Shown one piece after another: positions 4,087-51,576 of a stretch of DNA of 64,000 nucleotides (within the stretch, counting starts at the first letter, position 1; each line of letters begins with the position of its first letter). Source of the stretch: a virus (Duplodnaviria > Heunggongvirae > Uroviricota > Caudoviricetes). The position numbers were made by a program, and so were the translations under genes. The stretch is taken from IMG/VR virus record IMGVR_UViG_3300037455_000372, positions 11,710 through 75,709 of that record. One strand, 5' to 3'. The notes beneath the pieces are model-generated. The model had not been told where the DNA came from. It made no database searches and saw only the letters and a program-made list of their open reading frames with translations.

Positions 4087-4098
4087 TTGCTATATTTG
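4087..4098 (+). promoter_or_regulatory. TTGCTATATTTG promoter-like motif upstream of CDS 4117
   Basis: exact copy of repeated motif 19 nt upstream of ATG 4117. Confidence 0.5.
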
Positions 4099-4883: not shown

Positions 4884-4956
4884 CTATTTTTTATAGAAAA
4901 CTATTGCAAATTATGAATAATTAAAGTATATTTTTAATAGAAATGTATAAACTTAT

Positions 4957-5044
4957 TTTAGGAATGAGCGAGATTCCTAAAATGAAAAGTTTGGCGGCAT
5001 CTATGCCGACTAGTCCTATCTAGAACTCGCTCTTCTGGATAGGA
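4957..5044. repeat. three tandem perfect hairpins (TTTAGGAAT-GAGCGAG-ATTCCTAAA; CGGCAT-CT-ATGCCG; TCCTATC-N17-GATAGGA) in AT-rich spacer upstream of tnpB-like gene
   Basis: inverted repeats read directly from sequence; resemble subterminal hairpins of IS200/IS605-family ends. Confidence 0.5.
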
Positions 5045-5047
5045 TTT

Positions 5048-6349
5048 TTGTTTATGAAGACGGTTAAACTTACAATATGCAACGAAGTTGATGTGCTGGA
5101 TGATATGAGAATATTCAGCAGTATCGTTCGCATCGCGTTTAACCGTTTCCAAGATGGAATGGACGAAAAAGAAGTCCGCGCCTACTGCAATTCAAGGTTC
5201 AACCACAACAGCTGGTTCATCCAGTGTGCCATCAAGGAAGGTGCTGCACTGTACAAGCTGAATGGTAGTAAGCATATCTTGTTCGGTGGCAAGAACAACC
5301 TACGCCAATATATGCGTGGGATCATAGACAAGGCATCGTTCAAGTATCGCCGTATGTTACCGATAGGAATCCAAGGCGAGAAACAGCGTAAAGGGAATCG
5401 CTTGTTCTCGTTCGACTTTGAAACCCAACGGATTGTATACAAGCCGAACAAGGAAACCCACGTAGAAATCAAGTTCTTGCCGATGCGGAAGAATATCGCC
5501 GAAGAACTGTCCAAAGTACAAGAACTTGCACAACAGAACAATATAACGGTTTCCGTTAAGCTCTCTGATAAATATGTATGGCTTACCTATGACGAGACCT
5601 TAATCAAGGATGAACGATACATAAAGCTACGATCTAAGCGGGTGCTTGGTATAGATATGAACCCGAACTATATCGGGTTGTCTATCATAGAGTTCGATAA
5701 GAATGACGAGTTCAATGTATTGCACAAGCAAGTCTTTGATTTAAGACAGCTTACCGTTTCGTCCAGTAAATCGAGTACAGATAGCAAGTCCAAGTATCTA
5801 ACTAACAAGTTGAAACACGAGACTATTGCCATTGTCCATAAAATCAACAAGCTGGTTAATGTGTGGAAGTGCAAGACGGTTGCGATAGAAGATTTAAGCA
5901 TAAAACCGTCCGACATGAAGAAAGGCAAGACTTTAAACAAACTATGTAACAACAAGTGGGAACGAAACTTGTTCGTGATCAAGCTGAAAATGCTTGCTAA
6001 TCTGCATAAGTTCAATCTGGTTGAAGTCAACCCAGCGTATTCCAGTCAAGTAGGAAACATCGCCTACGGCGACGAAAATACACCAGATATGGTGGCTGCA
6101 TCTATTGAAATCGCTCGCAGAGCATACAAGAAATTCGACAAGGGATGGTTCTATCCGAAATTCAATATTCAGTTCCGAGATGAGCAATGGAAGCAAACAC
6201 TCGGTACGGTGGAAAATTGGAAAGACCTGTTCCGAAAAATCAAAGAATCGAAACTGAAATATCGGTTCCAGCTACTGGACTACGTTCAGAATGCCGTCTT
6301 TAGCAAAAACTATATTCAAAAGTGCTATTCTGTATACTCTTTTGCATAG
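5048..6349 (+). CDS. tnpB: TnpB-like RuvC-fold protein (IS200/IS605 OrfB family) lacking the zinc finger
   Basis: GIDMNPNYIGLSI (RuvC-I D), VAIEDLSIK (RuvC-II E), VNPAYSSQ (OrfB signature), PDMVAASIEIARRA (RuvC-III D); no CxxC pairs between the last two motifs; AT-rich compared with flanks. Confidence 0.7.
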   Translation: MFMKTVKLTICNEVDVLDDMRIFSSIVRIAFNRFQDGMDEKEVRAYCNSRFNHNSWFIQCAIKEGAALYKLNGSKHILFGGKNNLRQYMRGIIDKASFKYRRMLPIGIQGEKQRKGNRLFSFDFETQRIVYKPNKETHVEIKFLPMRKNIAEELSKVQELAQQNNITVSVKLSDKYVWLTYDETLIKDERYIKLRSKRVLGIDMNPNYIGLSIIEFDKNDEFNVLHKQVFDLRQLTVSSSKSSTDSKSKYLTNKLKHETIAIVHKINKLVNVWKCKTVAIEDLSIKPSDMKKGKTLNKLCNNKWERNLFVIKLKMLANLHKFNLVEVNPAYSSQVGNIAYGDENTPDMVAASIEIARRAYKKFDKGWFYPKFNIQFRDEQWKQTLGTVENWKDLFRKIKESKLKYRFQLLDYVQNAVFSKNYIQKCYSVYSFA

Positions 6350-7030
6350 TTATTTATAGTTTTGTATTTCATATATTCCTTCAAGTTCGTCCGCGACTTC
6401 GCGCATCGAGTGTTCCGCCATCCAAGTCTTGTTGTTGTCGATATAGAAGTGTACCGACTTGGACTGTTCGTAGGTCTTCCTAGAAAAATTCAAGTAACCG
6501 TCGGCACACTTGATATACAGATGTTCCGGATTTACGACCACATCTGAGTAGTACGATACTATCTGAGCCATCTGCGCCTCGAACGTCTGCTTGATGAACT
6601 GACGGACTTCGTCTCCGCCCATACCGCGAATGAGACCCTTCTCGATCAGCGAATCGACTTCGCCGCACCATAATGACACGGTTTCGGTATTATGCTCTTC
6701 GTGGACTATGCAGTTAATGTTCGGCTTGGACGTGTCGAACCCTGTAAAGACGCAGAACACGCATCCGCCAATCTTCAAGTTGCTTGTATCGTCGTGCTCG
6801 ACGCTCTTGAGACAGTTGCAGTTGATGATGTATTCGCGCTTCTCGACTTGGCACGACGGGTTGATATAGATGAACGGGTACCTCCGAGCCAGATCCAAGA
6901 GCTTTTCGTACGCTTCACGCTTGGTTTCCTCAAGCTGGAGGTTCTTGCTAACCGAAGCCAAGCTGGATTCGAGTTCTGTCTGGTGCTGCGACAGTGCAGC
7001 GATTCTTGTCATATCGTAACCATTTGCCAT
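6350..7030 (-). CDS. hypothetical protein (226 aa)
   Basis: minus ORF; stop abuts tnpB stop. Confidence 0.5.
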   Translation of the reverse strand: MANGYDMTRIAALSQHQTELESSLASVSKNLQLEETKREAYEKLLDLARRYPFIYINPSCQVEKREYIINCNCLKSVEHDDTSNLKIGGCVFCVFTGFDTSKPNINCIVHEEHNTETVSLWCGEVDSLIEKGLIRGMGGDEVRQFIKQTFEAQMAQIVSYYSDVVVNPEHLYIKCADGYLNFSRKTYEQSKSVHFYIDNNKTWMAEHSMREVADELEGIYEIQNYK

Positions 7031-9672: not shown

Positions 9673-10770
9673 ATGATTGATGAACGTATCGTTAGACTCG
9701 CCAGCCGCCTTATCGACGCGGTTAACCTCCAGTCCGGCGAGAACATCCTTATCGAATGCACCGACACACCGTCGAGCATTTCCGCAGCACTTACCGCAAT
9801 CGCGGCATCCCGTGGAGCGAACCCCATCGTGCGGACGTACGACAGCGTCGTTGAAAAGGAGTTCATCGCCACCGCATCCAAGGCAGCGAAGGAGAACCGC
9901 GCAAGGCACGAGCTGGCCGTTATGCGAGATATGCACGCCTACATCGCCGTCCGTGGTGCAAACAACGTGTTCGAGATGTCCAGCATCGACGGACAGACCG
10001 TGACCGATTACAAGCAAATTATGAAGCCGGTTCTGCGCTACCGAGTGGACCACACGAAGTGGTGCATCACCAGATGGCCGAACGCCGCGATGGCTCAGGA
10101 AGCCAAGATGTCCACCGAGAGCTTCGTGGATTTCTACTTCGACGCTTGCCTCGTAGACTATAAGCAGATGGCCAAAGACGCCCAGCCGCTGGTCGACCTT
10201 ATGAACAAGACAAAGAAGGTGCGCATCGTCGCTCCGGGTACGGACCTGTCCTTCAGCATCGAAGGACTTCCGGCGATTCCTTGCTGCGGCGAGAAGAACA
10301 TTCCGGACGGTGAAGTCTACACGGCACCGGTAAAGGACAGCGTGAACGGTCGTATCTCCTACAACACGCCGACGGTCTATTCAGGCCAACCGTTTTACGG
10401 CATCGTGCTCGAATTCGAGAACGGCAAGATCGTGGACGCCAAGTGTACGTCCGGCAGCCAGTCCGCGCTCGACGCGATATTCAACTCCGACGAAGGCGCA
10501 AGGTTCGTCGGCGAGTTCGCTATGGGTCTCAACCACAAGGTGACAAAGCCGATGTGCGACATCCTCTTCGACGAGAAGATTGCCGGTTCCATCCACTTCA
10601 CGCCGGGTAACGCCTACCAAGACGCTTGGAACGGCAACACATCCGCCATCCACTGGGACCTCGTCCTGATTATGGCAAAGGAATACGGCGGCGGCGAAGT
10701 CTGGTTCGACGACGTGCTCGTACAGAAGGACGGCAGATTCGTTCTGCCTGAACTCGAACCCCTCAACTAG
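9673..10770 (+). CDS. M29-family aminopeptidase (AmpS/PepS, aminopeptidase T-like)
   Basis: 365 aa; NIPDGEVYTAP, GSIHFTPG and overall layout follow the thermophilic aminopeptidase family pattern (by eye). Confidence 0.65.
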   Translation: MIDERIVRLASRLIDAVNLQSGENILIECTDTPSSISAALTAIAASRGANPIVRTYDSVVEKEFIATASKAAKENRARHELAVMRDMHAYIAVRGANNVFEMSSIDGQTVTDYKQIMKPVLRYRVDHTKWCITRWPNAAMAQEAKMSTESFVDFYFDACLVDYKQMAKDAQPLVDLMNKTKKVRIVAPGTDLSFSIEGLPAIPCCGEKNIPDGEVYTAPVKDSVNGRISYNTPTVYSGQPFYGIVLEFENGKIVDAKCTSGSQSALDAIFNSDEGARFVGEFAMGLNHKVTKPMCDILFDEKIAGSIHFTPGNAYQDAWNGNTSAIHWDLVLIMAKEYGGGEVWFDDVLVQKDGRFVLPELEPLN

Positions 10771-10777
10771 GTGTTTT

Positions 10778-12202
10778 ATGAAGACATATTCTGGAAACGA
10801 ACTTATAAAGGTGGCGAAGTATCGCCAGTCGGCGCAGGAATTCCTCGGCCAGCTCGAAGCAAAGGGGTTCGCCGTCGAAACAGTGACCGTCGAAGACAGC
10901 ACGGCTACTTTCCACTACAAGGCCGAACAAGACGGCCAGACCGTCTATGCTGACATCCTTGTCAAGAGCAGCAAGGGTGAAATCGGTGCCAAGGCAAAAT
11001 GCGGGTCCCGTTCCCATAAATACGAGTTCGAAAGGACGTACTATTCCAGCGAACGGTCAGATTTTTTCAAATGGATCGACTGCGTAACTAAGCTCAATAC
11101 CACGGAAGCCTTGGACGGCTCTATGTCGTTGCCTCACGACCTTTGGTATTCCATACCCAAGAACAAGGCGTTCTGTGAACGAGTGCGCAATGATTTGCTG
11201 CCGCTCACCAAATGCGACTATCAACTGAATAACTTGGCAAACCTAGTACATATGCCGGACGACCAATATAACTTTGGTATATCGATCGGGGCTTTTCCGC
11301 AACTTGTCTACAGCGCACAAATCAACGACTTTGTCCGAGACCCGCAACATCCGGAACTTTTTATTGATATCGGCATCACTAGCAGACAGTCAGGCTTCAT
11401 AACAATTAAGTGCTACGATTTCGACCCTCGTGGAAACGATTTGAAGCGCAAGATGTACCCTGAGACCAAGCTGGTTGCGGTGAAGAACCATACGCCAGAT
11501 AACGGCGAGTATATCTACCATACGGACTACGAAACCGCGCTGAAACTCGTCAAGGAGGCCAAAGACCGTCTCTGGGCTATTTACGACGAAGAAGCCAAGC
11601 GTCACGGAATTCCAGAAACTTGGAAGGAGGCTACCGGGTGGACTACTGACGGCCCGGTATATCCGGAAGGTTCCTCCGCTGGCGAAAGTATTACCAAGAA
11701 GCGCGATGACGCTCGCGCAAAGCTTATCGAGCAGAACTTGCGCGTCATCAAGGCTCAAGTCAGCCGTCGCTGCGACGCATCACTGGAAGATACCTTTCCG
11801 GGCGCACAGTATCTCGACAAGGTACCCAAATGGAGAGAGGAGAGCATCCTCCACGGAAACCAGTATTACTACGAGGCTTACGCCACTATTCCGTACAAGT
11901 TCCCAAACATCAAGGGTTCCAAAATCGCTTGGCAAGACAAGGTCATAGAGATTACCATCACCTATGACAAGTCATTCGACCGTTTCACCATTTCGTACAG
12001 AATCCCGTTCAAGTTCGCTTGTATGTGCGGCGTTTACGACTGGTTCTACGAAGCCAAGAAGCACGATACTGAAAAGATGATGATTATCAAGAACTCCGGC
12101 AGAGCCACCCACACGGATATTGGCTCCTCCGGCTTCAGGTACATCAAGCAACACCTCGACGAATTGAAGCAGTTCGCCGAGTACAAGGGATTCAAGGAGT
12201 GA
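10778..12202 (+). CDS. hypothetical protein (474 aa)
   Basis: long + ORF, tightly packed operon. Confidence 0.55.
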   Translation: MKTYSGNELIKVAKYRQSAQEFLGQLEAKGFAVETVTVEDSTATFHYKAEQDGQTVYADILVKSSKGEIGAKAKCGSRSHKYEFERTYYSSERSDFFKWIDCVTKLNTTEALDGSMSLPHDLWYSIPKNKAFCERVRNDLLPLTKCDYQLNNLANLVHMPDDQYNFGISIGAFPQLVYSAQINDFVRDPQHPELFIDIGITSRQSGFITIKCYDFDPRGNDLKRKMYPETKLVAVKNHTPDNGEYIYHTDYETALKLVKEAKDRLWAIYDEEAKRHGIPETWKEATGWTTDGPVYPEGSSAGESITKKRDDARAKLIEQNLRVIKAQVSRRCDASLEDTFPGAQYLDKVPKWREESILHGNQYYYEAYATIPYKFPNIKGSKIAWQDKVIEITITYDKSFDRFTISYRIPFKFACMCGVYDWFYEAKKHDTEKMMIIKNSGRATHTDIGSSGFRYIKQHLDELKQFAEYKGFKE

Positions 12203-13728
12203 TTATGCCCAGAGGACCAAGAATCAAGGTTTACGAAGAAAACGAACTGTTCGAGGCGGCTTCCTACATCCGGACGCTCGAAGGCGACCGTCCGCAACGA
12301 GAATCCGAAAACGTCCTCAAGCAGATCAACAAGATTTTCACCCTCCGCAGGGCCGAAGTCGCATCCAAGTTCGCGACACTCACCTTTACGGGCGTCGTGT
12401 GCAATACCCAAGCAAGGCTGGAAGCCTTTTTCCACGACTTCCATCGAGGCCGTTGGCAGATTACCGTGACGGCTTACGTCGGCGACTACACGAAGAGTAT
12501 CACGGATATCGAATACTGTCTCTACATCGGGTTTCCGCACTTTATGGATTGGGTCAAGAACGTCATTCCCTACAAGAAGAACCTTCCGTTGGAACCGGGG
12601 CAGAACGCCGCGTCCGAACTCTGGTACGAGACCGAATCCGGCAAGAAGTTCATTTCACAGATGACAGAAATCGGCTTCGTTTCTCAAGTGGATAGCAAGT
12701 ATGGTTATTCCTCTCCACTGAAATTGGGTAAGAAGGCGCACGACAAGATTGTTCCTCTCGTGTACAGCGACGACATCGGACACTTCCGTGTTTCCGACAA
12801 TGACCAGAATATCAACGGAGATGTCCGTATCAAGATGAAAGGAAAGGAGCCGACCGTCTGGTTGTGTTCAAGCGTGGCGGATATTATGGAAAAACAGTTC
12901 AACTGTCCGGTCCACATATTTGACCCCGACCACGCTGTGGAACCGGACAAGTTCGTCGAGGAAGTGAAGAAGCTCTTGAAGTTCAACGAAGACCGTATCG
13001 ACAAGCTTGCTGCAGATAACGGCGGACTCACTTGGAGAGGAATCGACTTCCATACTCACTACAGCGACAAGTGCGCACGCCCGTACGATTTCGATAAGCT
13101 TCCTAAAAAAGACCAAGATCGAATCACCGAGCACTTGGCGAAGCTCGCTGAAAATCGTATGGACGAATATGACCACTTCTTCACTACGTCCAAGTTCGCC
13201 AACCTCTACAACTATATCAAGGAACACGGACGCGTCGCACCATACCCTAGCCAGTTCGGCAACGAGCACCACATCGAGTTCGAGGTTCCGATCGTCCTTG
13301 ACGAACCGATTAACTACGGTGAAAGCTTCAAGCAGCGCAACGTCTCGGTTACCGGCGAAATCTACGTCAAAGACAAAGAGTGTAAAAGCTGGTCGTGGTG
13401 CGGAGACGGCGAATCTTTTTATCCGGACTCCATCAGAATGTATATTCCGCTCTGCTACTACACCGACAAAGGTGCTTTCACAAGCTGGGAGGAAGCCATC
13501 GCCGCCGGTAGCAACACAGATTACGGCGGAGCTTGCTATATCCAAGGATGCAAGGTTCCTCGCGGCAAGAACAATTACTCTAGCGTCTGCTTCAACGAAT
13601 ACTGGCACGACGACCAGTGCATCGATGCCGAAGAGCTGAAACGCTTCGAGCACGTCCTTATGAACATCAAGGCCGACCACGAGCAGTTCCTCGTCGACCG
13701 CCACTACAAGGAGAAGGCCGATGGCTAA
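12199..13728 (+). CDS. hypothetical protein (509 aa)
   Basis: ATGA overlap with upstream gene. Confidence 0.55.
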   Translation: MIMPRGPRIKVYEENELFEAASYIRTLEGDRPQRESENVLKQINKIFTLRRAEVASKFATLTFTGVVCNTQARLEAFFHDFHRGRWQITVTAYVGDYTKSITDIEYCLYIGFPHFMDWVKNVIPYKKNLPLEPGQNAASELWYETESGKKFISQMTEIGFVSQVDSKYGYSSPLKLGKKAHDKIVPLVYSDDIGHFRVSDNDQNINGDVRIKMKGKEPTVWLCSSVADIMEKQFNCPVHIFDPDHAVEPDKFVEEVKKLLKFNEDRIDKLAADNGGLTWRGIDFHTHYSDKCARPYDFDKLPKKDQDRITEHLAKLAENRMDEYDHFFTTSKFANLYNYIKEHGRVAPYPSQFGNEHHIEFEVPIVLDEPINYGESFKQRNVSVTGEIYVKDKECKSWSWCGDGESFYPDSIRMYIPLCYYTDKGAFTSWEEAIAAGSNTDYGGACYIQGCKVPRGKNNYSSVCFNEYWHDDQCIDAEELKRFEHVLMNIKADHEQFLVDRHYKEKADG

Positions 13729-16621: not shown

Positions 16622-17061
16622 TGTACCTTGAAGACTTCAAGCAGAAATATCCGGATTTCTACGACTTCAAGCTGGATCCGTTCTTGCAGTGCATCTCTTG
16701 CTTTACCAAGAAACCGCTATGGTTCAAAATGTCCGAGATAAAACCGGCTTGCGGCTCTATCATCAAGGCCGTATTCATATCTGGTTTCATCCGCTATATG
16801 CTTGTCGAGAAGGGAAACAAACTCAGCAACCTCGGCGCATATATGTCCAGCGGTGTGACTAGAGGAATCGTGGCTTGGATGCCAGCCGGTGCAAGCCTAG
16901 AGAACTTCGTGAAGGTCAGATTGGAGGCACCCTTGGGGCTGGTTTCGGCTACCGAGGTCGCACTGCACATCCCGGTAGACCAAGAGGCCGTCTTCCAGTA
17001 CCGCTTCGATATGAACTCGTTCCAAGACACCCGTATCGACAATGCCGTACCAGTCATCTAG
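16618..17061 (+). CDS. hypothetical protein (147 aa, start MMYLEDFK)
   Basis: ATGA overlap with previous stop; AAGGAAGG upstream. Confidence 0.5.
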   Translation: MMYLEDFKQKYPDFYDFKLDPFLQCISCFTKKPLWFKMSEIKPACGSIIKAVFISGFIRYMLVEKGNKLSNLGAYMSSGVTRGIVAWMPAGASLENFVKVRLEAPLGLVSATEVALHIPVDQEAVFQYRFDMNSFQDTRIDNAVPVI

Positions 17062-17558
17062 CCTTTTTTCACATAGCTTCTCCGTCGCCGGGTAATCTCG
17101 GCACGGTCTTCGTCAGACGTTCTGTGATATTCATAACCGAACAAGTCGGCGTTAACGCATATCGCGCTAGTTAGCCATTCGAGGGTAGCCAAGCGCATCA
17201 CCTTGTAAGGCACGTCAACCATCTTGACTATGTGGAAATTCGACTCCAATATCAGGTCGTCCGATATCTTGGACACCATCACGCGAGCCGTAGGACAGCA
17301 AGCTAGATACAGCTTGCTTTTTTCTTCGTTCACGGTGTGCGTAAGGTCGAAAAATGAGTCCCAGTCGGCATAGATATCCCTTATCACGTACATATCGCCA
17401 GTATGGATGTCCCTTATAACCAGATAGAACATCCTAGTGTCGAACTCGGCTATGGCCTTGGACTTGCGCATCTTCTTCCGGAACAACAGCCTCGGAATCC
17501 TGACTAGCCCAAATAGCCCAAATAAAATGTAAATCAGAGTAAATAACGGTCGCATCAA
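17058..17558 (-). CDS. membrane-anchored protein, paralog family 1 (member A)
   Basis: N-terminal TM helix then basic patch then conserved block MFYLVIRD..YVIRDIY; similar layout in 5 other genes. Confidence 0.55.
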   Translation of the reverse strand: MMRPLFTLIYILFGLFGLVRIPRLLFRKKMRKSKAIAEFDTRMFYLVIRDIHTGDMYVIRDIYADWDSFFDLTHTVNEEKSKLYLACCPTARVMVSKISDDLILESNFHIVKMVDVPYKVMRLATLEWLTSAICVNADLFGYEYHRTSDEDRAEITRRRRSYVKKG

Positions 17559-18055
17559 CCAGCCCAGTGTTTCATAAGCAGTTTAGCTGCAGCTGGACTT
17601 AAATTATACACTACCGTGTCCGGACATTCTATCACACCCAACGCCTTGTGGGAAATCAAGATACGCCACACTCCCCAGCGCATCAACGAAGGCATTATTT
17701 CTTCCGGAATGTCATTGAATTTGCAAGTCTTGAACCGAGGATCCCTACCGTGCTTGTCACCCCACAGACGAGCGGTAAAGCTCCACTCTTGGTTAATCAT
17801 ATCCTGCCTAGAGTTCAGCATAGTACATATAGAATACATATCCTTGTATGTCTTGCTGTACACATCGGTTATGAATATGTATTCGCCCGGCCAGAACCAG
17901 AGACATAGATAGTTACGGTCGGGGTACATATGCTCGTGACCAATGTTGTTTCGCATATAGACGCGAGAAAAGGACAGTACCTTTCGTACTGCCCCTACAA
18001 GAGCACAAGTCCACAGGACCCACTTAACTATTTCCAACAGCTTTCTTATCTTCAT
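17555..18055 (-). CDS. membrane-anchored protein, paralog family 1 (member B)
   Basis: N-terminal TM helix; block EYIFITDVYSK. Confidence 0.55.
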   Translation of the reverse strand: MKIRKLLEIVKWVLWTCALVGAVRKVLSFSRVYMRNNIGHEHMYPDRNYLCLWFWPGEYIFITDVYSKTYKDMYSICTMLNSRQDMINQEWSFTARLWGDKHGRDPRFKTCKFNDIPEEIMPSLMRWGVWRILISHKALGVIECPDTVVYNLSPAAAKLLMKHWAG

Positions 18056-21000
18056 TCTTCACCATAAACGGTATCATATAACTGACCTTGCCCGTATCTA
18101 GGTTTATAAAGTAGTCGCGGTCGGAATAGAACGAAGCTTGCGTCGAAAGCAACAGACGATCACTTTGACCATTTTCATCGTCTCCGTCTTTGACGTTTCC
18201 GACGTTCATTTTCAGTTGGACGGATTCGGTGGTGGAGAAACATTCCGTCTTCTTGAAACCAAGACGGGAAATCAAACCGGCCATACCGAAATCGACAGTA
18301 TGATCCATTAACTTATCATACTTGTCGAACCCCATACAAGACCCAAGCACGAACAACTCGCCGTATTTCTCGTCCTTGTGGATCGACTTGACGATGGAGG
18401 GAACCCCATAATTGGGACTCAGCTTTACCGGAATCTTGACTGCGCCGCCGACACGCTTTTTCTTCGGCTTCTCTACGGGAGCCTCATCATCTGCCGTGGT
18501 TACTCGCTCGGTCAGATGGTTGCGATACCGCTCAGCGAACGCCCTGAGCGTACCGCATTCCTCGTTTGTCATCAGCGTTTTCTTCTTGAGGTCTTCAAGG
18601 TTGTCGTTAACCACATAGCCGTTGGCCGCCATATACGAGAACAAGTCTTCCACGCGAGGCATACGGAGTTCATCCGTCTCCAACAGAGGCATCGCGTCAC
18701 GCGGGTAGAACATAACACCGTTGTCGAACTGGATTATCGGTCTGTGCTTGCCTTCTTCCAGCTCGTCGCCGCACCCAAGGTTAAACAAGGTAGCCTCTTC
18801 CTCAGTAACCGGGGTCTTCGAACTCTCGAACGACGGCACGTAGACATAGCCTGAAATGCCCGGAACGCCTACCGGGACGCTGTTACATATATCCACCGCC
18901 GAAATGAACCCAGACTGCATATTGTAAGGCAGATCGAGGTCATTGGAGATGATGTCTGACAACGCGTTGATATCGAGGTAAAGCAGACCGAACTCCGGTT
19001 TCATATTGCGAGAGTTCTCGGTATATCCACGGTACAAGAATTGGCCGATCTGCTTGGCACGGCGGAACTCGGTTTCGCCAGCCGACAGCATAGCCGTATA
19101 GAACACGTCACGGACATCGGCTCCGTGTGTCGCCGTCAAGTCCTGAATGACCGTATCGTTGATGTTCAAGTTGTAAGTCTCGTTGATCGCAACCGGTCTT
19201 TCTTCATCGTCGTTGTCTATGTATGACCGATGGTTGTCTTCGATGACCCACGAATTGGATTCGTTACTGTTGATAAGCTTATTGCTCGTTCGCTGAATGA
19301 ACTTGCCCAATTTAGCGAGCACGTTCGATATGTCGTCGGCTGTAAAGTTCGCAAGAGCCATCTCCGTCGAAACGGTACCGAAAATGGCATCGTTCACGAA
19401 CCTCTCGCGGACAATCATACGACGCCAATACTCGGTCGCTTGCTGGCCTCTGGTGAACGAGTTGATCACGATGTTGTAATAACCGGTATTGGTCGACGAT
19501 TCTCTATCGATATCCAGACCGTCGGACACCTCGTCTACGCCGAGGATTTCCGTTTTGCCGCAATTCGCCATATCGCCGTCTTCTGGGGGGTCCGGAAACG
19601 GCACACCGTTCGCCATTTTTTCCACGACGAAGTTGTAGCCCGGATGCAATGAGATAACCTTGCCGTTCACTTCTACCAAGGGGACGTACACGTTGTAGAC
19701 CAGCTTCAGAGCGTCGAGCGAGTAGTTCGACTTGATGTCCTTGGGACTGTGGAACGCAGTCTCCGCAAAGTCGAGAACCTTGTTGCGGACAATCATACGG
19801 TTATAACTGTACGGAAGCATCATAGCCTTGGTATGGCTGACCTCGAAATGCTTGATGAATTCGTCCCTCTGGCGGAGGATGTCGTACCGGACGGCCTCGT
19901 TACGGTAACATTCCAGCGCGGGGTCGTCGCACCGTTTCCAGACCATCTTCGCGCCGTCCGCCGTATGGACGATGGAGATAATCTTGACCGGAACGTCAAA
20001 CTCTTCCTTCGGCAGCATATCGAGCACGTTGGCTGGCAGCTTGACCACTTCGTAGCCTTCGGGGACGTACTTCAGAGGTTCGGTTGTCCATAACGACTTG
20101 CCGAACTTACGCAGATGGTAAGTGGACTGGTCACGCTTGTCCACGAACTTCTTCGTACGGAGTCCGACCTTGCCGAACTCCTTGTCGGCAAGCTTGGCGA
20201 TCTTCAGGCGACGCTTGAGCAAGCTTTCGTTATTGGCGACAATGTCCTTGACCATATCCTTGAGGATCTTGCGCTCGTCCTTGGGCGTGTACGGAGGACA
20301 TACCTCGAAGAACGGGCCGCCGAGCAGCATAGACAGCTCGATCTCGGAATACTTGTTGTCACCCTTGCGCTCGTCGATGTTGTCGTGCGCGTGGTTCCAG
20401 CGGTTGTTTACGTGGATAAGGCGACCGCCCGGCCCGATGTCGATACCGAGCATAGACTCGCCGTAAAGCTCGTCGTCGACCGTGATGTTCTCGAATCCCG
20501 GTAGGACGGCCAGATACAGCCTGATACGGTTCGTAGCGGCTCCGTCGCTGTCCTTATCAAGCGAGCTGGACTTGACCATCTGGTAGTGTCTGAAAGTGTC
20601 CGGATATTGGAGGTGGCACCAAGTGTGCGGCTTGGTGTACTCGGCATACTGATTGGCGGTCTCGAACGAGTCCAGCTCGATAATCTTGTACTTGCGAGGC
20701 CCGTACTTCATACGCTTGAGCTTGCGCTTCATAGCAGACCAGTTGGCCGTGGCCTTCGTGCCGTAGATGGCGAGCATCTTCTCGTAAGTGAGCTGTTCTC
20801 CTTGGGTGGAGACAAGATGTCTGTTGTAGTCCTTGCAGTGAGCGATGCTGATTATCCTGAGCATATCGCGAAACGAGGAAATCTTCGTCAGCTCCTCGTC
20901 CCCAGTACCCAGATCAAGCTCGCCGAAGGCGATTCTAGCCGCACCGGGCGCGAACCTAATCTTGCACTGGCCGTCACGGAAAAACGTGGAGCGCAAGTCC

Positions 21001-21155
21001 ATATAGGCCGCTCTCGTCCACGAGGACAGCTTGCGGTTCTCCGCCACCTCTTTATAAATACTTTCGATAAACGCTGCGTTCGGAAGGGACTGCAGCACCT
21101 TCTTGGTGTATCTGTATGCGTCGCCTTCGCTACCATTAGTCTCTACATTAGCCAT
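18024..21155 (-). CDS. large hypothetical protein (1043 aa)
   Basis: single uninterrupted ORF; promoter motif 21161-21171 immediately upstream; no polymerase, ATPase or terminase motif recognised by eye. Confidence 0.6.
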   Translation of the reverse strand: MANVETNGSEGDAYRYTKKVLQSLPNAAFIESIYKEVAENRKLSSWTRAAYMDLRSTFFRDGQCKIRFAPGAARIAFGELDLGTGDEELTKISSFRDMLRIISIAHCKDYNRHLVSTQGEQLTYEKMLAIYGTKATANWSAMKRKLKRMKYGPRKYKIIELDSFETANQYAEYTKPHTWCHLQYPDTFRHYQMVKSSSLDKDSDGAATNRIRLYLAVLPGFENITVDDELYGESMLGIDIGPGGRLIHVNNRWNHAHDNIDERKGDNKYSEIELSMLLGGPFFEVCPPYTPKDERKILKDMVKDIVANNESLLKRRLKIAKLADKEFGKVGLRTKKFVDKRDQSTYHLRKFGKSLWTTEPLKYVPEGYEVVKLPANVLDMLPKEEFDVPVKIISIVHTADGAKMVWKRCDDPALECYRNEAVRYDILRQRDEFIKHFEVSHTKAMMLPYSYNRMIVRNKVLDFAETAFHSPKDIKSNYSLDALKLVYNVYVPLVEVNGKVISLHPGYNFVVEKMANGVPFPDPPEDGDMANCGKTEILGVDEVSDGLDIDRESSTNTGYYNIVINSFTRGQQATEYWRRMIVRERFVNDAIFGTVSTEMALANFTADDISNVLAKLGKFIQRTSNKLINSNESNSWVIEDNHRSYIDNDDEERPVAINETYNLNINDTVIQDLTATHGADVRDVFYTAMLSAGETEFRRAKQIGQFLYRGYTENSRNMKPEFGLLYLDINALSDIISNDLDLPYNMQSGFISAVDICNSVPVGVPGISGYVYVPSFESSKTPVTEEEATLFNLGCGDELEEGKHRPIIQFDNGVMFYPRDAMPLLETDELRMPRVEDLFSYMAANGYVVNDNLEDLKKKTLMTNEECGTLRAFAERYRNHLTERVTTADDEAPVEKPKKKRVGGAVKIPVKLSPNYGVPSIVKSIHKDEKYGELFVLGSCMGFDKYDKLMDHTVDFGMAGLISRLGFKKTECFSTTESVQLKMNVGNVKDGDDENGQSDRLLLSTQASFYSDRDYFINLDTGKVSYMIPFMVKNEDKKAVGNS

Positions 21156-21160
21156 ACCCT

Positions 21161-21171
21161 AAATATAGCAA
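21161..21171 (-). promoter_or_regulatory. TTGCTATATTT promoter-like motif (minus orientation) upstream of 1043-aa gene
   Basis: motif copy 6 nt before ATG 21155. Confidence 0.5.
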
Positions 21172-21247
21172 ATGTAGGCGAATTTGTCAAAACAAAAATG
21201 CCGAGGAATCGGCACATCGAACTCGACCGAGACCGCGATCACCGGCC

Positions 21248-21547
21248 TCAAGCCGTATGAAGACACGCGTTAGTCCGTGGTTCGCGCCACATTGCCAGAG
21301 CAATCGCCGTTAGAGCAGCTTCCCAACCAGGGCCGTAATCCCATTGCTGAAACCACAGCCGCATTCCAATCGGTACACCGCAAGGCGAAGCCAGACGCTC
21401 ACCACTGTGGTACCAGTCGTCAAAGGAGATTTCCCTACAGCCGCTTGCAATCAGCTTACGAGTCACCGCCAGCCCGATATGCCGATTTCTCGGCACTGTC
21501 TTAAATATAGCATCAATGATGCCGGTTGTCAAGTTCTCCGTCGCCAC
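21248..21547 (-). CDS. hypothetical protein (99 aa)
   Basis: minus ORF between operons; weak. Confidence 0.35.
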   Translation of the reverse strand: MATENLTTGIIDAIFKTVPRNRHIGLAVTRKLIASGCREISFDDWYHSGERLASPCGVPIGMRLWFQQWDYGPGWEAALTAIALAMWREPRTNACLHTA

Positions 21548-22043
21548 TTTCGTAATTTTCTGCGGGAATTGGGTCGCTGTAACACCACCAATAACGCTCC
21601 TTCACGCGTTCCGGATTGTTGGCCGGGTCGAACATCCGGGCTACCAGCTTCTTAATCGCGGTCGGTGTCGTCCACAGAAACCGCCTCTTACACTCGGACA
21701 GTTTCTTGATTTCCACTCGCGTCACCATTCCAGAAAGATATTCTCGCCACTGTATAAAGTTAGGCATCGGGTCGCCGTATTGTTTACCGGCCAAACCGAA
21801 GTACACTTCTCTGAACGCCGATGTCCGGTCCATCATCGCCGTAAAAGAAAACTTGTCGTTAAACCACACGTCGTAGAACAGTTCGATATGGTCTGGATAG
21901 GCCAATATGAAGTACGTCCTTCCCGGAACAAGCCCAAGAGAGAATGATCTGGTTTGCCTATACCGGCCGAAATACTTGACGATGTATCGTAAAGTATAGG
22001 CGAAGGTCATCCAGTATACTATAGATGCTATCCGAGCTAACAT
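21513..22043 (-). CDS. membrane-anchored protein, paralog family 1 (member C)
   Basis: N-terminal TM helix; block TYFILAYPDHIELFYDVWF. Confidence 0.5.
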   Translation of the reverse strand: MLARIASIVYWMTFAYTLRYIVKYFGRYRQTRSFSLGLVPGRTYFILAYPDHIELFYDVWFNDKFSFTAMMDRTSAFREVYFGLAGKQYGDPMPNFIQWREYLSGMVTRVEIKKLSECKRRFLWTTPTAIKKLVARMFDPANNPERVKERYWWCYSDPIPAENYESGDGELDNRHH

Positions 22044-22465
22044 TAAATATTCTCCAACACATCGTGGTATAATTCTCTAATCAGCTTCTTGCTGAAGTCT
22101 TCTAGCGGCAATTCTTCGAACAGTACGAAATTACAGTTGCTACTAAACCAACTGAAATACTGGCTGACCATCACGTCGGAGTTGTCGAGAACCCTCCCAC
22201 TCTTGTAAAAGAAGATTCGATAACGTATCTCTTTCACAAGCTCAAGCAACGGTTTCGCTCCACGGTCGCCTTGACCAGAAAAGTCCGTTACAAAATAATA
22301 TCTGCCGCATTCGTCTCTAAAAATCAGATAGTACCAGCCGTTTCGGCCACCGATGCTAGGGACGGCTTTCCCCGCACGCACCAAGCTTATCAGCGTCTTT
22401 GCCACGGTGAACAGAAGGCACCCTAAATATATGAACAGACCAAGCTTCCTCATTTGGCCACCCAT
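22043..22465 (-). CDS. membrane-anchored protein, paralog family 1 (member D)
   Basis: N-terminal TM helix; block YYLIFRDECGRYYFVTDFSG. Confidence 0.55.
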   Translation of the reverse strand: MGGQMRKLGLFIYLGCLLFTVAKTLISLVRAGKAVPSIGGRNGWYYLIFRDECGRYYFVTDFSGQGDRGAKPLLELVKEIRYRIFFYKSGRVLDNSDVMVSQYFSWFSSNCNFVLFEELPLEDFSKKLIRELYHDVLENI

Positions 22466-22887
22466 AAACCTTCTTTACGGTGCTTCAAGAACGATTGTAC
22501 CGCAGTCCGAATTTCGTTGTTAGTATCGCCAGAAAACGGCAGCGTATCAAGCGTACACGGTTCATAGTAACCAAAATTCAGAAACAAATACCATACGACA
22601 CGGCAATAATCAATCCGATACAAGTTCAAGTCGGGAAGGCTGAAAATGTACGTCATCTTGCTCGTAAGATAATCGACCAGATCGGCCATCTCGTGTGAAT
22701 AGCACTCAAAAACGCAAGCGTCCTTGACGACGTAATGCTTGCCTTTGTACTGAATACCGAGACACGTCTGCTTTATCCCATACATATTGAACGGATGGAA
22801 CTTCGCATAGCGGAAACGCTTGTAGGCGTGACGCACCGCGAGTACCAAGACGAACGCGTATATGATGGATAGTAAATGCCTCTTCAT
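22450..22887 (-). CDS. membrane-anchored protein, paralog family 1 (member E)
   Basis: N-terminal TM helix; block HYVVKDACVFECY. Confidence 0.5.
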   Translation of the reverse strand: MKRHLLSIIYAFVLVLAVRHAYKRFRYAKFHPFNMYGIKQTCLGIQYKGKHYVVKDACVFECYSHEMADLVDYLTSKMTYIFSLPDLNLYRIDYCRVVWYLFLNFGYYEPCTLDTLPFSGDTNNEIRTAVQSFLKHRKEGLWVAK

Positions 22888-23336
22888 ACTATTACCGCAG
22901 GGTGCTTTATAATCAAGTCGAAATGCTTACGGACATTCTTCTTGAACAAGTCTCCGCATCTCTTGTCTTCAAGCGGAATGTCCTTCAGTTTTCCATACTC
23001 GTACTTGGCACCGCGTTCTTTTTTGCGTTTCGGATTGTATATGGAAATGAGCGAAGAAATGTACGGTCCGTGGTCGTGGTTTACGTTATAGACAAACTCC
23101 GTATTCGCCACCCTACTTGCAAACAGACGCATCTTGTACAGATAAATCTTGTCGGCGGCGCAGTCGGTGACGAAGTAGAATCGGTCCGGTCGGTATTTCA
23201 CAACCAGAATAATGCAAGTCGGCTCTCGCATAAGCTGCGTGAAGAATCCAGCGGCTACACTACGGAATACTCGTCTCAGCATCAAGACGAAAGTCGAACA
23301 GTACAACGCAAGTGCTACCCATCTCCGCATAAACAA
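22884..23336 (-). CDS. membrane-anchored protein, paralog family 1 (member F)
   Basis: N-terminal TM helix; block RFYFVTDCAADKIY. Confidence 0.55.
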   Translation of the reverse strand: MFMRRWVALALYCSTFVLMLRRVFRSVAAGFFTQLMREPTCIILVVKYRPDRFYFVTDCAADKIYLYKMRLFASRVANTEFVYNVNHDHGPYISSLISIYNPKRKKERGAKYEYGKLKDIPLEDKRCGDLFKKNVRKHFDLIIKHPAVIV

Positions 23337-23383
23337 AAGGTGAGCCGAGCGACCGGCTCACCACCCCAATCCTAGAATGACTA

Positions 23384-24883: not shown

Positions 24884-25702
24884 CTAACTTTCGCAACGCC
24901 GTTTCCTAGAGGACTTCTTGGCCGCCTTCCGGGCTTCTCGCTCCTTGGCAAGCTCCTCCTTGATACGGCGGACTTCCTCCTTCTTGGCCTTCTTTTTCTT
25001 CTTGACGCTCTCGTACTCCATACCCAGCTTCATCATAGGAGATTCAGCCAGCGATATGGCTCCCAGCGTCTTGGTTGTGGTCAACAAGGCGAACTTTGAC
25101 GGGTCAAGCTTCTCCACGCCGAACTTTTCCAGAACCATCAGCTCGCGAAGTATTTCGCACATCCAGAATGCGTCACAAAGGTCGTTGTGAGGCGACTCGA
25201 ACTGTTTAAGCTTCTCGAAGATTTCGGTCGGGTAAAGGCTAGGGTATTCCGACTTGAACGACACGCACATCGAAATCTTGTCGGCATCCCCGTCACCTGT
25301 GGCGAACCGCTTGATCTGGCCGATACCGAAGTTGATGATTCCCAGACCCTTCGTATAGGCAAGATAACGGATTCCCCCACAGAACTCCGCTATCTGCAAG
25401 ATGCTGCCGCTTCCGGTGTGAGCCTTGGAAGTAGCGTAGTCTTCCATACCCAAGAACTTAACCCCGTCCAGACGCTTCGATATGATGTCGTAGGTCAGCC
25501 GCTGGCGTTCGGGCATACAGAGAGCCGAATACTTGTCCGGAGCGCACAAGTACACGATATGGACATTTCCCTCGTCCACGGCATACATCTTGGTCGTAGT
25601 ATAACCGTAGAACTGGATGTCCTTCACTTCAAGGTCGTCGTCCAAGTCCATAACGACAATGCCGCTGGACTTGATCGACGGGTCGATACCAGCTATCTTC
25701 AT
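24884..25702 (-). CDS. RuvC-like Holliday-junction resolvase with Lys-rich C-terminal tail
   Basis: N-term MKIAGIDPSIKSSGIVV matches the RuvC (M)xIxGIDPG..xGxxV opening; C-term KKKKKAKKEEVRRIKEELAKEREARKAAKK. Confidence 0.6.
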   Translation of the reverse strand: MKIAGIDPSIKSSGIVVMDLDDDLEVKDIQFYGYTTTKMYAVDEGNVHIVYLCAPDKYSALCMPERQRLTYDIISKRLDGVKFLGMEDYATSKAHTGSGSILQIAEFCGGIRYLAYTKGLGIINFGIGQIKRFATGDGDADKISMCVSFKSEYPSLYPTEIFEKLKQFESPHNDLCDAFWMCEILRELMVLEKFGVEKLDPSKFALLTTTKTLGAISLAESPMMKLGMEYESVKKKKKAKKEEVRRIKEELAKEREARKAAKKSSRKRRCES

Positions 25703-26847
25703 TCAGCCACCTTGACCGTGTCGGTATACACGTTCTCGTCCCAATACTGCATAGCGTTCTTGAACCAGAGAACCTGTTCTTCGGACAGCGGAGTGTAGCG
25801 GTGGTAATCGGTAGCCAAGTCGAAACCGTTGCGCTTAGCAAAGGAACGACCGTGGATGTGGCCGTACAGATAGGTCACGCCGTCTCGTGACGGAGCCGGG
25901 AAATCGACCGGTTCGTGGATGATGGCAAACTTGAATGTCTCACCCTTCGCATTTGTCAGCTCCACCTCGCACAGACCGCCCGGAACCGGCTGGACGGTCT
26001 GGGTATGGTCGAACAGTTCGATGGAACGCTTACCCTCGTTCACTTGGTTAAACGCATCCACGATAGTCTTAATCTGGTCGAACGCCTTGCGGTCGTAGTT
26101 TCCGAGCGTCCAATACAGCTTCTTGAAGTTGAGGTTGGATAGTAAGTCGATGACGTACTGCTGGTTAGAGACTTCGCCGAAGTCGCCAGCGTGGTACACA
26201 ACGTCGTCGGGGCGGACAACCTTGTTCCAGTTGGACATCATCGTCAGATCCATTTCAACCAAGTCTGCGAACGGACGGCAAGAGAGTTCCAAGGTGCGCT
26301 GCTGGCCGAAATGCGTGTCGGAGGTGAACCACTTACGCTCCGGAGACTTCTGGAGGTCATTGACCACGTCAGACAGCATCTTCTTCAAGTCGTTGTACCA
26401 GCTTTTCTTCTGCTCCGTAAACTTGAGCGTGAGGTACTTCATCTTGGTAGCGTCTTCGGGGAATCCGAAGTACACGCCCGGCTTCTTGTACCATTCGCCG
26501 AACTCGATATTCGTCGTGAAGGCTGGCCATTTCTCGCATCGAGGGACCCAGAATACGAGAGCGGAACAGATGTGCATCATCGAGCGTTCCCACTCGGTCT
26601 GCGCCCACAGGCTGTCCGGCTGGTGACGTTCCATATCGCTGTACTTGTCGTTGGTCGGCGTAATGACGGTTCCACGGAAACCCAGCTCTTCGAGGATGTC
26701 GAACGCCGTGTATCGCCAGTCATCATCGTAGTCGAATCGAGGACACGGTCCGGCGAGGAAAATGGAGTTCCGAAGGTTGGTGGGCGGGTTGAGTGTCTTG
26801 GTTTCCTCGTTGAAGGGAACCAGAACGCGGAAAGAATAGTTCTTCAT
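25699..26847 (-). CDS. fusion protein: nucleoside 2-deoxyribosyltransferase-like N-domain + calcineurin-like metallophosphoesterase C-domain
   Basis: N-term SIFLAGPCPR...DDWRYTAFDILEELGF; C-term phosphoesterase motifs SDTHFG, HAGDFGE, LGNYD, YGHIHG in canonical order. Confidence 0.6.
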   Translation of the reverse strand: MKNYSFRVLVPFNEETKTLNPPTNLRNSIFLAGPCPRFDYDDDWRYTAFDILEELGFRGTVITPTNDKYSDMERHQPDSLWAQTEWERSMMHICSALVFWVPRCEKWPAFTTNIEFGEWYKKPGVYFGFPEDATKMKYLTLKFTEQKKSWYNDLKKMLSDVVNDLQKSPERKWFTSDTHFGQQRTLELSCRPFADLVEMDLTMMSNWNKVVRPDDVVYHAGDFGEVSNQQYVIDLLSNLNFKKLYWTLGNYDRKAFDQIKTIVDAFNQVNEGKRSIELFDHTQTVQPVPGGLCEVELTNAKGETFKFAIIHEPVDFPAPSRDGVTYLYGHIHGRSFAKRNGFDLATDYHRYTPLSEEQVLWFKNAMQYWDENVYTDTVKVAE

Positions 26848-36648: not shown

Positions 36649-36721
36649 AGCTGGTGATAGGACTCGAACCCACAACGTCTTGTGTACAAAACAAGCATTC
36701 TACCAATTGAATTACACCAGC
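36649..36721 (-). tRNA. tRNA-Thr (anticodon TGT)
   Basis: acceptor GCTGGTG/CACCAGC, anticodon arm CTTGT-TTTGTAC-ACAAG, T-arm GTGGG-TTCGAGT-CCTAT. Confidence 0.7.
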
Positions 36722-40208: not shown

Positions 40209-40478
40209 CTAACCTCTGTAATTGGGGTAAATATAGCAACACGGAGGATAAATGTCAATACGCCAATCGCCTAATTGGTATGGCAAGTCCTTGGTCATTC
40301 GCATATACTCTTTCATCGGGTCTACCGGGTCAGTAAACATATTCTTGTCCATCGCCGGGACTGCTATCAAGACCAGAAGCATCGAAGTCCACAACGCTGT
40401 GCGCCTAATAGTACACTTCAACGCAACCAGAAAGGTTACCGTAAACCAAATAAGTGCCAATACCGCTTGATCTAGCAT
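40209..40478 (-). CDS. small membrane protein (89 aa, two TM segments)
   Basis: hydrophobic helices; minus ORF between operon members. Confidence 0.4.
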   Translation of the reverse strand: MLDQAVLALIWFTVTFLVALKCTIRRTALWTSMLLVLIAVPAMDKNMFTDPVDPMKEYMRMTKDLPYQLGDWRIDIYPPCCYIYPNYRG

Positions 40479-44050: not shown

Positions 44051-44138
44051 AAATTCCTCTCAGATGACGAAATTATAGCAATCCGGACTACGGATGTCAA
44101 CGGTTGAACGAATAATTGGCCTTTTTTATATTGGTGGT

Positions 44139-48950: not shown

Positions 48951-49024
48951 AGGCCATTTCCTCTGACTTGAATATAGCAATTTGCACCGATCTTGTCAAC
49001 ACTAAAATATCGAAATAAAACAAA

Positions 49025-51138: not shown

Positions 51139-51576
51139 TTACCCCTTATAGAGCTGATACTTTTTGCTCAAAGTACGACTAGTCTCGTCGGGCAACGGCT
51201 TGAACCAGATTCCGACGCGGCAATACTTGTTGCCTTTCTCGTCTACGGCCTCCGGAGTCAGCTCCGTCAAGCAAGCGTCGTCGATAAAGTCATAGTCGGT
51301 TCCCTTGACCAGACCCATTTCCTTGGCGACATCCTCCACCTTCATCAAGTGGTTAAGATTCTTCGCCTCGCAGATGGTCTTGACGAACAGACCTTGGATA
51401 TACTCTTCCATCGTCTTTGTATCGAGTTCGAACGTCACTTGGTATACACCGTCGTCCTCCATCGAATTCGTGGAAATAAGGCGGGTCCAGTAACCCTCGG
51501 CACAGTGAGCCACCATCGCGGCAAGCTTACCGGCAGACAAATTCAAGTCCTTTCGGATGATAAATAAACGGCGCAT
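51139..51576 (-). CDS. PTH2-family peptidyl-tRNA hydrolase-like protein
   Basis: FIIRKDLNLSAGKLAAMVAHCAEG matches the PTH2 v.R.DL.m..GKiaAQ..HA opening block. Confidence 0.55.
   Translation of the reverse strand: MRRLFIIRKDLNLSAGKLAAMVAHCAEGYWTRLISTNSMEDDGVYQVTFELDTKTMEEYIQGLFVKTICEAKNLNHLMKVEDVAKEMGLVKGTDYDFIDDACLTELTPEAVDEKGNKYCRVGIWFKPLPDETSRTLSKKYQLYKG

Follow-up and report, generated by a model that had tools for sequence, protein, structure and literature searches.

Profile evidence for one distant family of six small, putatively membrane-anchored proteins around a large conserved protein of huge phages

The question raised by the locus described here is whether six small genes gathered around one large gene of a huge phage belong to a single protein family, and what such a family would do for the phage. 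The locus lies in a stretch of 64,000 nucleotides (nt) of the IMG/VR record IMGVR_UViG_3300037455_000372, from a Caudoviricetes phage, and this whole stretch is referred to as the window. Its source is a huge-phage genome of about 480 kb, and the matching metagenomic contigs, near-identical or related, measure 485,763 and 479,300 bp. Searches of 50,697 deposited phage genomes by megablast and tblastn returned no match to the region or to the protein of the large gene. The small genes are labelled A to F in the order in which they are transcribed, and the large gene, which encodes 1043 amino acids (aa), is called BIG. A preliminary description of the window had proposed a six-member paralogous family of single-pass membrane proteins, with a targeted function such as superinfection exclusion, immunity or anti-defence. 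The open reading frame (ORF) listing bears out the six genes where that description had placed them, all on the minus strand.

Pairwise identity among the proteins A to F is 14–25%, and BLASTP among the six gives no significant match, the best E being about 0.01 in the six-sequence database. Comparison by hhalign of profiles built from close orthologues only supports one pair, A–C. When a profile of A and C is compared with the 298 window ORFs of at least 60 aa, the best three non-self matches are B, F and E, in alignments which are collinear, near full-length for B and F, and which include conserved Tyr, Asp, Pro and Arg positions. The relationship is also seen with hidden Markov models (HMMs) from which one subfamily at a time was left out. 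In 6 of 6 cases the omitted gene ranks first among the window ORFs not used in training, with 10.8–16.2 bits against at most 8.5 bits for any other window ORF, and the real score is reached by none of 500 composition-preserving shuffles. When the first 32 residues are trimmed, A and E keep the first rank among ORFs outside the training set, at 14–15 bits, the scores of B, C and F become marginal, and D is not detected.

HMMER, run exhaustively against 1.84 billion cluster representatives, retrieved 23 proteins at E ≤ 1e-3. Most of them are 130–177 aa long and match the whole length of the profile; the others are truncated fragments, together with one 1381-aa repeat protein, which is regarded as a spurious match. 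The distant members bridge the subfamilies, an example being P0061, which matches A, C and B. With such distant homologues added, hhalign gives probabilities of 98% for A–B and for A–C, 97% for B–C and 92% for C–F. The merged A/B/C/F profile aligns with E at 93–94%, and the merged five-subfamily profile with D at 76–82%, the resemblance of D lying mainly in the N-terminal ~70 residues and the C-terminal helix. Judged by these profiles, A to F form one family of true but very distant homologues, in which D is the least certain member. The proposed paralogy is thus upheld by the leave-one-out ranks and the hhalign values, and the shared sequence block is judged to be homologous rather than compositional. 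Three other window ORFs with weak matches (57412–58329, 1712–2329 and 51139–51576) were checked as further paralogues and rejected.

None of the six proteins matches a curated family in Pfam-A, PHROGs v4, NCBIfam 20 or PADLOC-DB 2, where the best E values (0.067–0.54) are scattered over unrelated models, and the fold search of the family in PDB and BFVD gave no match. From these searches, A to F are a previously undescribed protein family, absent from the curated libraries searched. Huge phages carry hundreds of unannotated genes each, and here six ORFans become one defined family with a signature, a fixed genomic partner and a fold unmatched in the searched PDB and BFVD.

The family signature consists of three elements. 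First comes an N-terminal hydrophobic helix, in which one Tyr is nearly invariant, followed by Arg or Lys and then by a basic stretch. Second, a β-hairpin ends in an invariant Asp; the Tyr/strand block of the preliminary description (‘YFVTD’) is confirmed as the second strand of this hairpin. Third, the hairpin is followed by a helix, further strands, a D/E-h-P motif and a C-terminal helix with a conserved Arg. The AlphaFold2 model of the C protein (predicted local distance difference test, pLDDT, 76; predicted template modelling score, pTM, 0.64) places these elements in a helix at residues 2–28, a disordered linker at 26–33 and a β-β-α-β-β-α domain.

The uncharged hydrophobic stretch at the N-terminus is found in all members and spans 11–18 residues, with a mean of 14.7; in the six window proteins it measures 12–18 residues. 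Because this mean is short for a transmembrane helix, the stretch is named here an N-terminal membrane anchor. Of the transmembrane helix claimed earlier, it is the hydrophobic stretch that stands, and a single pass through the membrane is plausible to probable. The claimed basic patch is present as well, with a net charge of +3 to +8 after the stretch in the six window proteins. Net charge averages +4.2 in the 15 residues after the stretch and +1.6 before it, and in 66 of 71 sequences the flank on the C-terminal side is the more basic of the two. According to the positive-inside rule, which is a rule of thumb and not a measurement, the more basic flank marks the cytoplasmic side. The basic C-terminal flank therefore suggests that the globular domain faces the cytoplasm, and the 2–5 Cys of each window member would fit that location.

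The elements of the locus follow each other on the minus strand in the order terminator, A-B-C-(D), promoter, ~305-nt RNA, terminator, promoter and BIG-E-F. Gene A (22884–23330; 148 aa) shares a 4-nt ATGA overlap with gene B (22450–22887; 145 aa), which in turn shares an ATGA overlap with gene C (22043–22453; 136 aa). Gene D (21513–22043; 176 aa), the most divergent member, overlaps C by 1 nt. BIG (18024–21155) is followed by gene E (17555–18055; 166 aa), whose first 32 nt are shared with the end of BIG, and by gene F (17058–17555; 165 aa), which overlaps E by 1 nt. F is the last gene of the minus-strand block and is convergent with a plus-strand gene ending at 17061. The overlapping start and stop codons described before are found within A–D and within BIG-E-F. 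E and F do lie downstream of BIG as described, but A–D are not immediately upstream of it, 357 bp separating D from BIG.

Three start codons were changed on the basis of upstream-peptide conservation in relatives and of ATGA-type overlaps. Gene A is read from the ATG at 23330 (MRRW..., MRRWVALALYCSTFVLML...) and not from the TTG at 23336, because the peptide upstream of the publicly called A starts is conserved in relatives; this peptide (FMRRW/FMRKW...ALALYCSTFVLML) is kept in two related contigs, L003 and L004. For C and F, the most likely starts are 22453 (MRKLG) and 17555 (MRPLF), respectively. The public gene calls of subfamily A (P0015, P0038, P0046 and P0048) begin 10–35 codons too late and give products of 115–140 aa in which the hydrophobic anchor is lost. 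Such late starts matter for automated membrane-protein surveys of these genomes.

The gene order is shared by the close relatives L003 (486 kb) and L004, in which the arrangement A, B, C, D, gap, BIG, E, F is identical. In L010 (479 kb), whose BIG protein is 52% identical, the order is A, B, a second B-like gene (B′), C, gap, BIG, E, F, without D, and L008 shows A, B, C, gap, BIG. The A orthologue of L008 (2641–3201; 186 aa) contains an internal tandem repeat of ~40 residues (…NINRDNRFPYVEAKLGVWGRSYFNGNRYGYGPV…, twice). A D-like protein, P0058, occurs in another lineage. Across the clades, A, B, C, E and F form ordered one-to-one orthologue groups, and it is the upstream set which varies, from A, B, C, D in the window clade to A, B, B′, C in L010 and to the repeat-bearing A with B and C in L008. 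D and B′ are inferred to be lineage-specific additions to a core of A, B, C, E and F.

The small proteins differ in how far they have diverged. Between the window and L010, identity is 27% for A, 36% for B, 32% for C and 34% for F, and it is 57% for E, the most conserved member, 52% for BIG and 55–85% for most neighbours; two unannotated neighbours are ~32–35% identical. The pairwise ratio of nonsynonymous to synonymous substitution rates (dN/dS) among close relatives is mostly 0.2–0.4 for A, B, E and F, with single pairs higher (B 0.80; E 0.41–0.46), about 0.6 for C and 0.7–0.9 for D, the annotated neighbours lying at 0.1–0.3. No pair of the six genes in these relatives exceeds 1. The family is fast-evolving, yet purifying selection acts on all six genes. 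The tandem diversification proposed earlier is visible in the variable upstream set, including copy number (D, B′), in the low identity of A, B, C and F between clades and in the ratios of C and D. It does not extend to positive selection by pairwise dN/dS, and the duplications that gave the paralogues are old, the ordered orthologues being one-to-one at a BIG identity of 52%.

Family members were seen solely beside BIG orthologues, on metagenomic contigs of up to 479–486 kb. No further member was found elsewhere in the window or in any fetched locus, and no relative of E in GTDB species genomes or IMG/VR. By this distribution, the family is confined to a clade of ~480-kb huge phages.

The constant partner, BIG, has no match in Pfam, PHROG or PDB sequences. 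In an alignment of 46 homologues, the first ~330 residues of BIG are very conserved, with H106, R112, W179, C180, D239, H248, R252, N254, D266, N267 and E273 invariant. This N-terminal domain is common to proteins of 600–900 aa on many huge-phage contigs; their C-termini are variable, and some carry FISUMP PF09603. The IMG/VR contig L001 bears two paralogues with the domain (5343–6857 and 9977–12583). On sequence comparison, the domain is widespread in huge phages and without known fold or family. Behind it, residues 336–364 match the start of TIGR02145 with 16.4 bits, below the cut-off of 41.65 and over only the first 29 profile positions, and the fold-search matches in this C-type-lectin-like region are weak. 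The curated cut-off for FISUMP membership (TIGR02145 or PF09603) is thus not reached by BIG, whose C-terminal region is clade-specific. Tentatively, BIG may be described as an enzyme-like conserved domain joined to a ligand-binding domain. The idea of BIG as an RNA-guided nuclease, suggested by an ‘LGIDIG’ string and the adjacent RNA, found no support in fold or profile searches and survives only within the improbable ribonucleoprotein proposal given below.

More distant BIG homologues (36–40% identical), on contigs L013 and L014, are flanked by small hydrophobic proteins which are not detectably related to the family. Their membership was rejected by HMM and hhalign comparison, and a C-terminal ‘RKHP’ string noticed by eye was not counted. 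These proteins, encoded at 4910–6000 and 9397–9852 of L013 and by the equivalents in L014, comprise two paralogues ending ..RKHP.. and one 151-aa protein with two hydrophobic segments. Since these flanks are unrelated, BIG does not strictly need the family proteins; the flanking proteins may be a functional analogue of the family.

The 357 bp between D and BIG are laid out as a transcription unit of their own, with a promoter, ~305 nt of candidate RNA, a terminator and a second promoter for BIG. The first promoter-like site (TTGACA-N14-TGCTATATT, 21504–21532) has 11/12 matches and a TG extension and is kept in relatives. It is followed by the candidate structured non-coding RNA (21192–21497), closed by a terminator hairpin (GTGCCGATTCCTCGGCAT then TTTTGTTTTG, 21198–21215), and by the second site of the same form (21162–21190), which ends 7 nt ahead of the BIG start codon. 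The ~305-nt stretch is ~75–80% identical between clades where the BIG protein is only 52% identical, which makes it more conserved than the small family genes and BIG. It contains long invariant blocks, and indels of 1–2 nt between clades break any reading frame. Because of these indels, the ORFs overlapping the element, namely a 99-aa frame at 21248–21547 of the window and a 113-aa public call at 4093–4434 of L008, which use different frames in different relatives, are probably spurious.

The predicted fold of the candidate RNA has a free energy of −138 kcal/mol, far better than that of shuffled sequences (z = −5.3). In the consensus fold, a closing helix of ~26 bp joins the 5′ and 3′ ends; in forming it, the 5′ hairpin and the 3′ terminator hairpin alternatively pair with each other. 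The central G·U-rich hairpin is invariant, and this points to an RNA read from the minus strand, because these G·U pairs would be A·C mismatches in a transcript of the opposite strand. Pairs changed on both sides number 8, compared with 4.4 in shuffles and 1–2 in slid controls, a covariation which is suggestive of a structured RNA, with two clades sampled. Rfam 15 gave no match at E ≤ 1 for either strand of 21100–21600, and ARAGORN called no transfer RNA (tRNA) or transfer-messenger RNA (tmRNA) in the element. By nhmmer, the element occurs solely in the gap before BIG, where all loci of the two clades have it, and no match was obtained in L001, L013 or L014; an exact-word scan of IMG/VR for it found nothing. 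With its own promoter and terminator, the candidate RNA is a separate, directly testable lead.

The two promoter-like sites belong to a wider set. The extended motif TTGACA-N14-TGCTATAWT occurs five times in the window (21162–21190, 21504–21532, 40230–40258, 44072–44100 and 48971–48999), all on the minus strand, against 0 expected, and looks like a set of sigma-70-type phage promoters. In a Bacteroidota host, such a consensus would be unusual. The last codons of D (..G-E-L-D-N-R-H-H, 21513–21540) coincide with the −35 region of the RNA promoter, whose hexamer encodes ‘ELDN’, which accounts for the conservation of this tail among D orthologues. At the other end of the locus, a terminator-like hairpin (GGTGAGCCGG..CGGCTCACC then TTTTGTTT, 23339–23362) with 10 pairs, of which 7 are GC, is kept in L003 and L004 and stops 9 nt short of the A start codon; no promoter was detected between the two. 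A–D may thus be expressed by read-through of this terminator, whereas BIG-E-F have a strong promoter-like site of their own.

The reading favored here, with a probability of roughly 0.4, sees the paralogues as non-redundant partners of BIG, tethered to the membrane and forming with it a membrane-associated module made from host-type promoters. In this scenario, the short N-terminal hydrophobic helix and the basic helix after it would hold each protein on the inner side of the host's cytoplasmic membrane, and the flexible linker would present the compact ~100-residue α/β domain to the cytoplasm. The paralogues could then tether BIG to the membrane, for example, or regulate it there. A, B, C, E and F would be the core of the module, with D and B′ as lineage-specific parts, and its candidate roles include the blocking of entry of competing phage DNA or the remodeling of the envelope. 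The conserved linkage to BIG is at least as good a sign of a shared module as of independent factors. If the model is true, the module at the host membrane is conserved and perhaps early, and it could underlie competitor exclusion or envelope takeover in a phage group not yet culturable.

Several findings weigh against this model. Conserved adjacency and coupling indicate co-expression and not a complex. The fast divergence, the dN/dS of D of up to 0.9 and the upstream gain and loss equally fit conflict-driven factors. The terminator directly before A, with no promoter detected, means that A–D are maybe expressed differently from BIG-E-F. A bilayer-spanning helix would usually be longer than about 15 hydrophobic residues, and the uncharged stretch of E is down to 12. 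Finally, the BIG homologues of L013 and L014 have no family neighbours.

The strongest alternative, possible though somewhat doubtful, follows the preliminary description and treats the paralogues as independent conflict factors. Each would block a different competitor phage, by superinfection exclusion at the inner membrane, or neutralise a different host defence, and the adjacency of BIG would be historical or reflect shared expression timing only. Small size and an N-terminal anchor, putative here, recall exclusion proteins such as T4 Imm and Sp and lactococcal Sie2009 (established knowledge). The divergence of A, B, C and F beyond most neighbours, the ratios of C and D, the upstream turnover with the internal repeat of the L008 A protein, and the host-type promoters of the region also speak for it. 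Yet no PHROG, Pfam, NCBIfam or PADLOC model is matched, and the maintenance of five of the six genes as ordered one-to-one orthologues with overlapping codons through deep divergence is unusual for arsenals which turn over freely. The absence of any pairwise dN/dS above 1, and of the family away from BIG in the window and the fetched loci, also speaks against it.

Alternatively, the proteins could be soluble and act in the cytoplasm, the N-terminal helix being an oligomerisation or partner-binding element, such as a coiled or buried helix docking onto BIG. This is unlikely. The shortness of the hydrophobic stretch would agree with it, as would the summed insertion free energy near zero (approximate, on the Hessa scale), the nearly invariant Tyr within the stretch followed by an amphipathic basic helix, and the only moderate AlphaFold2 confidence for the N-terminal helix of C (pLDDT 66–71). 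Against these points stand the order of Met, 1–3 basic residues, ~15 hydrophobic residues and Arg or Lys, which is a typical signal-anchor pattern, the Kyte-Doolittle mean of the stretch, mostly ~1.4–2.7, and the disordered linker between helix and domain in the C model.

The model of membrane-tethered BIG partners could also be extended to the RNA. In that case the ~305-nt RNA, BIG and the five or six tethered paralogues would make up an unknown membrane-associated ribonucleoprotein peculiar to ~480-kb phages, in which the small subunits give specificity; this is a speculative proposal with a low likelihood.

A role in the timing of lysis is very improbable; the proteins would then resemble holins or antiholins, and their weakly hydrophobic N-terminal anchor would be releasable. 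The moderately hydrophobic N-terminal stretches with Gly, Ala, Ser and Thr do recall signal-anchor-release (SAR) domains, which are known from T4 RI and SAR endolysins. However, the neighbourhood has no endolysin, spanin or holin profile and no muralytic domain within ~10 kb, its Pfam matches being AAA_28, a Nuc_deoxyri_tr2 and Metallophos_2 fusion, NIF3 and CM_2; the six proteins themselves match no profile, and the charge bias would put their domain in the cytoplasm. Least probable of all is that there is no family, only a compositional likeness of hydrophobic N-termini and aromatic-rich strands: the marginal BLASTP value, the single A–C pair from close orthologues and the loss of D after trimming are what it would predict, but the collinear profiles, the shuffles, the rank of A and E without their N-termini and the 92–98% hhalign values largely refute it for A, B, C, E and F.

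The remainder of the window is in keeping with its source. ARAGORN found 39 tRNA genes on the minus strand at 36649–60042, mostly in tight arrays and covering most amino acids; broad tRNA sets are typical of huge phages. Other window genes encode NAD synthase, RtcB, an M29 peptidase, a C5-methylase, NIF3 and chorismate mutase. Three further ORFs lie on the minus strand: a 305-aa ORF (57412–58329) inside the tRNA array has an HNH-like motif (HHIIPKSLGG...N...REH) and looks like a homing endonuclease; a 272-aa ORF (24884–25702) starting MKIAGIDPS.. is RuvC-like by eye and without Pfam match; and the adjoining 382-aa ORF (25699–26847) has a nucleoside 2-deoxyribosyltransferase-like domain joined to a metallophosphoesterase domain.

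Known systems resemble different parts of the locus. The likeness to FISUMP and C-type-lectin-fold domains (TIGR02145/PF09603, and the variable proteins TvpA and TaqVP of diversity-generating retroelements) concerns BIG and not the six small proteins; it consists in the match of BIG residues 336–364 to the start of TIGR02145 and in the PF09603 of some proteins sharing the BIG N-terminal domain. The candidate RNA is comparable with the phage RNAs of Rfam, GOLLD, ROOL and tmRNA, being likewise conserved, highly structured, a few hundred nt long and encoded in a tRNA-rich phage genome. It differs from GOLLD and ROOL in being shorter, at ~305 nt, and in having no Rfam match at the threshold given above, and it is not called as a tmRNA by ARAGORN.

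For the small proteins, two comparisons are available. The T4 RI antiholin and SAR proteins also combine a moderately hydrophobic N-terminal anchor, putative in A–F, with a small globular domain, but the domain of RI is periplasmic and serves a lysis circuit, whereas that of A–F is predicted to be cytoplasmic, in a neighbourhood where no lysis genes were found. The exclusion proteins T4 Imm and Sp, lactococcal Sie2009, HK97 gp15 and P22 SieA are likened to A–F from established knowledge and not through a database match. They differ from the family, which is known here from sequence alone, in that no sequence, profile or fold match joins them to it, in being single genes where A–F are six ordered paralogues, and in the conserved linkage of A–F to a ~1040-aa protein and an RNA gene. 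They are alike in a size of ~80–200 aa, an N-terminal anchor (putative in A–F), a position outside the structural module and likely host-type promoters, and in kind the family is like the small anchored accessory proteins found in many phages.

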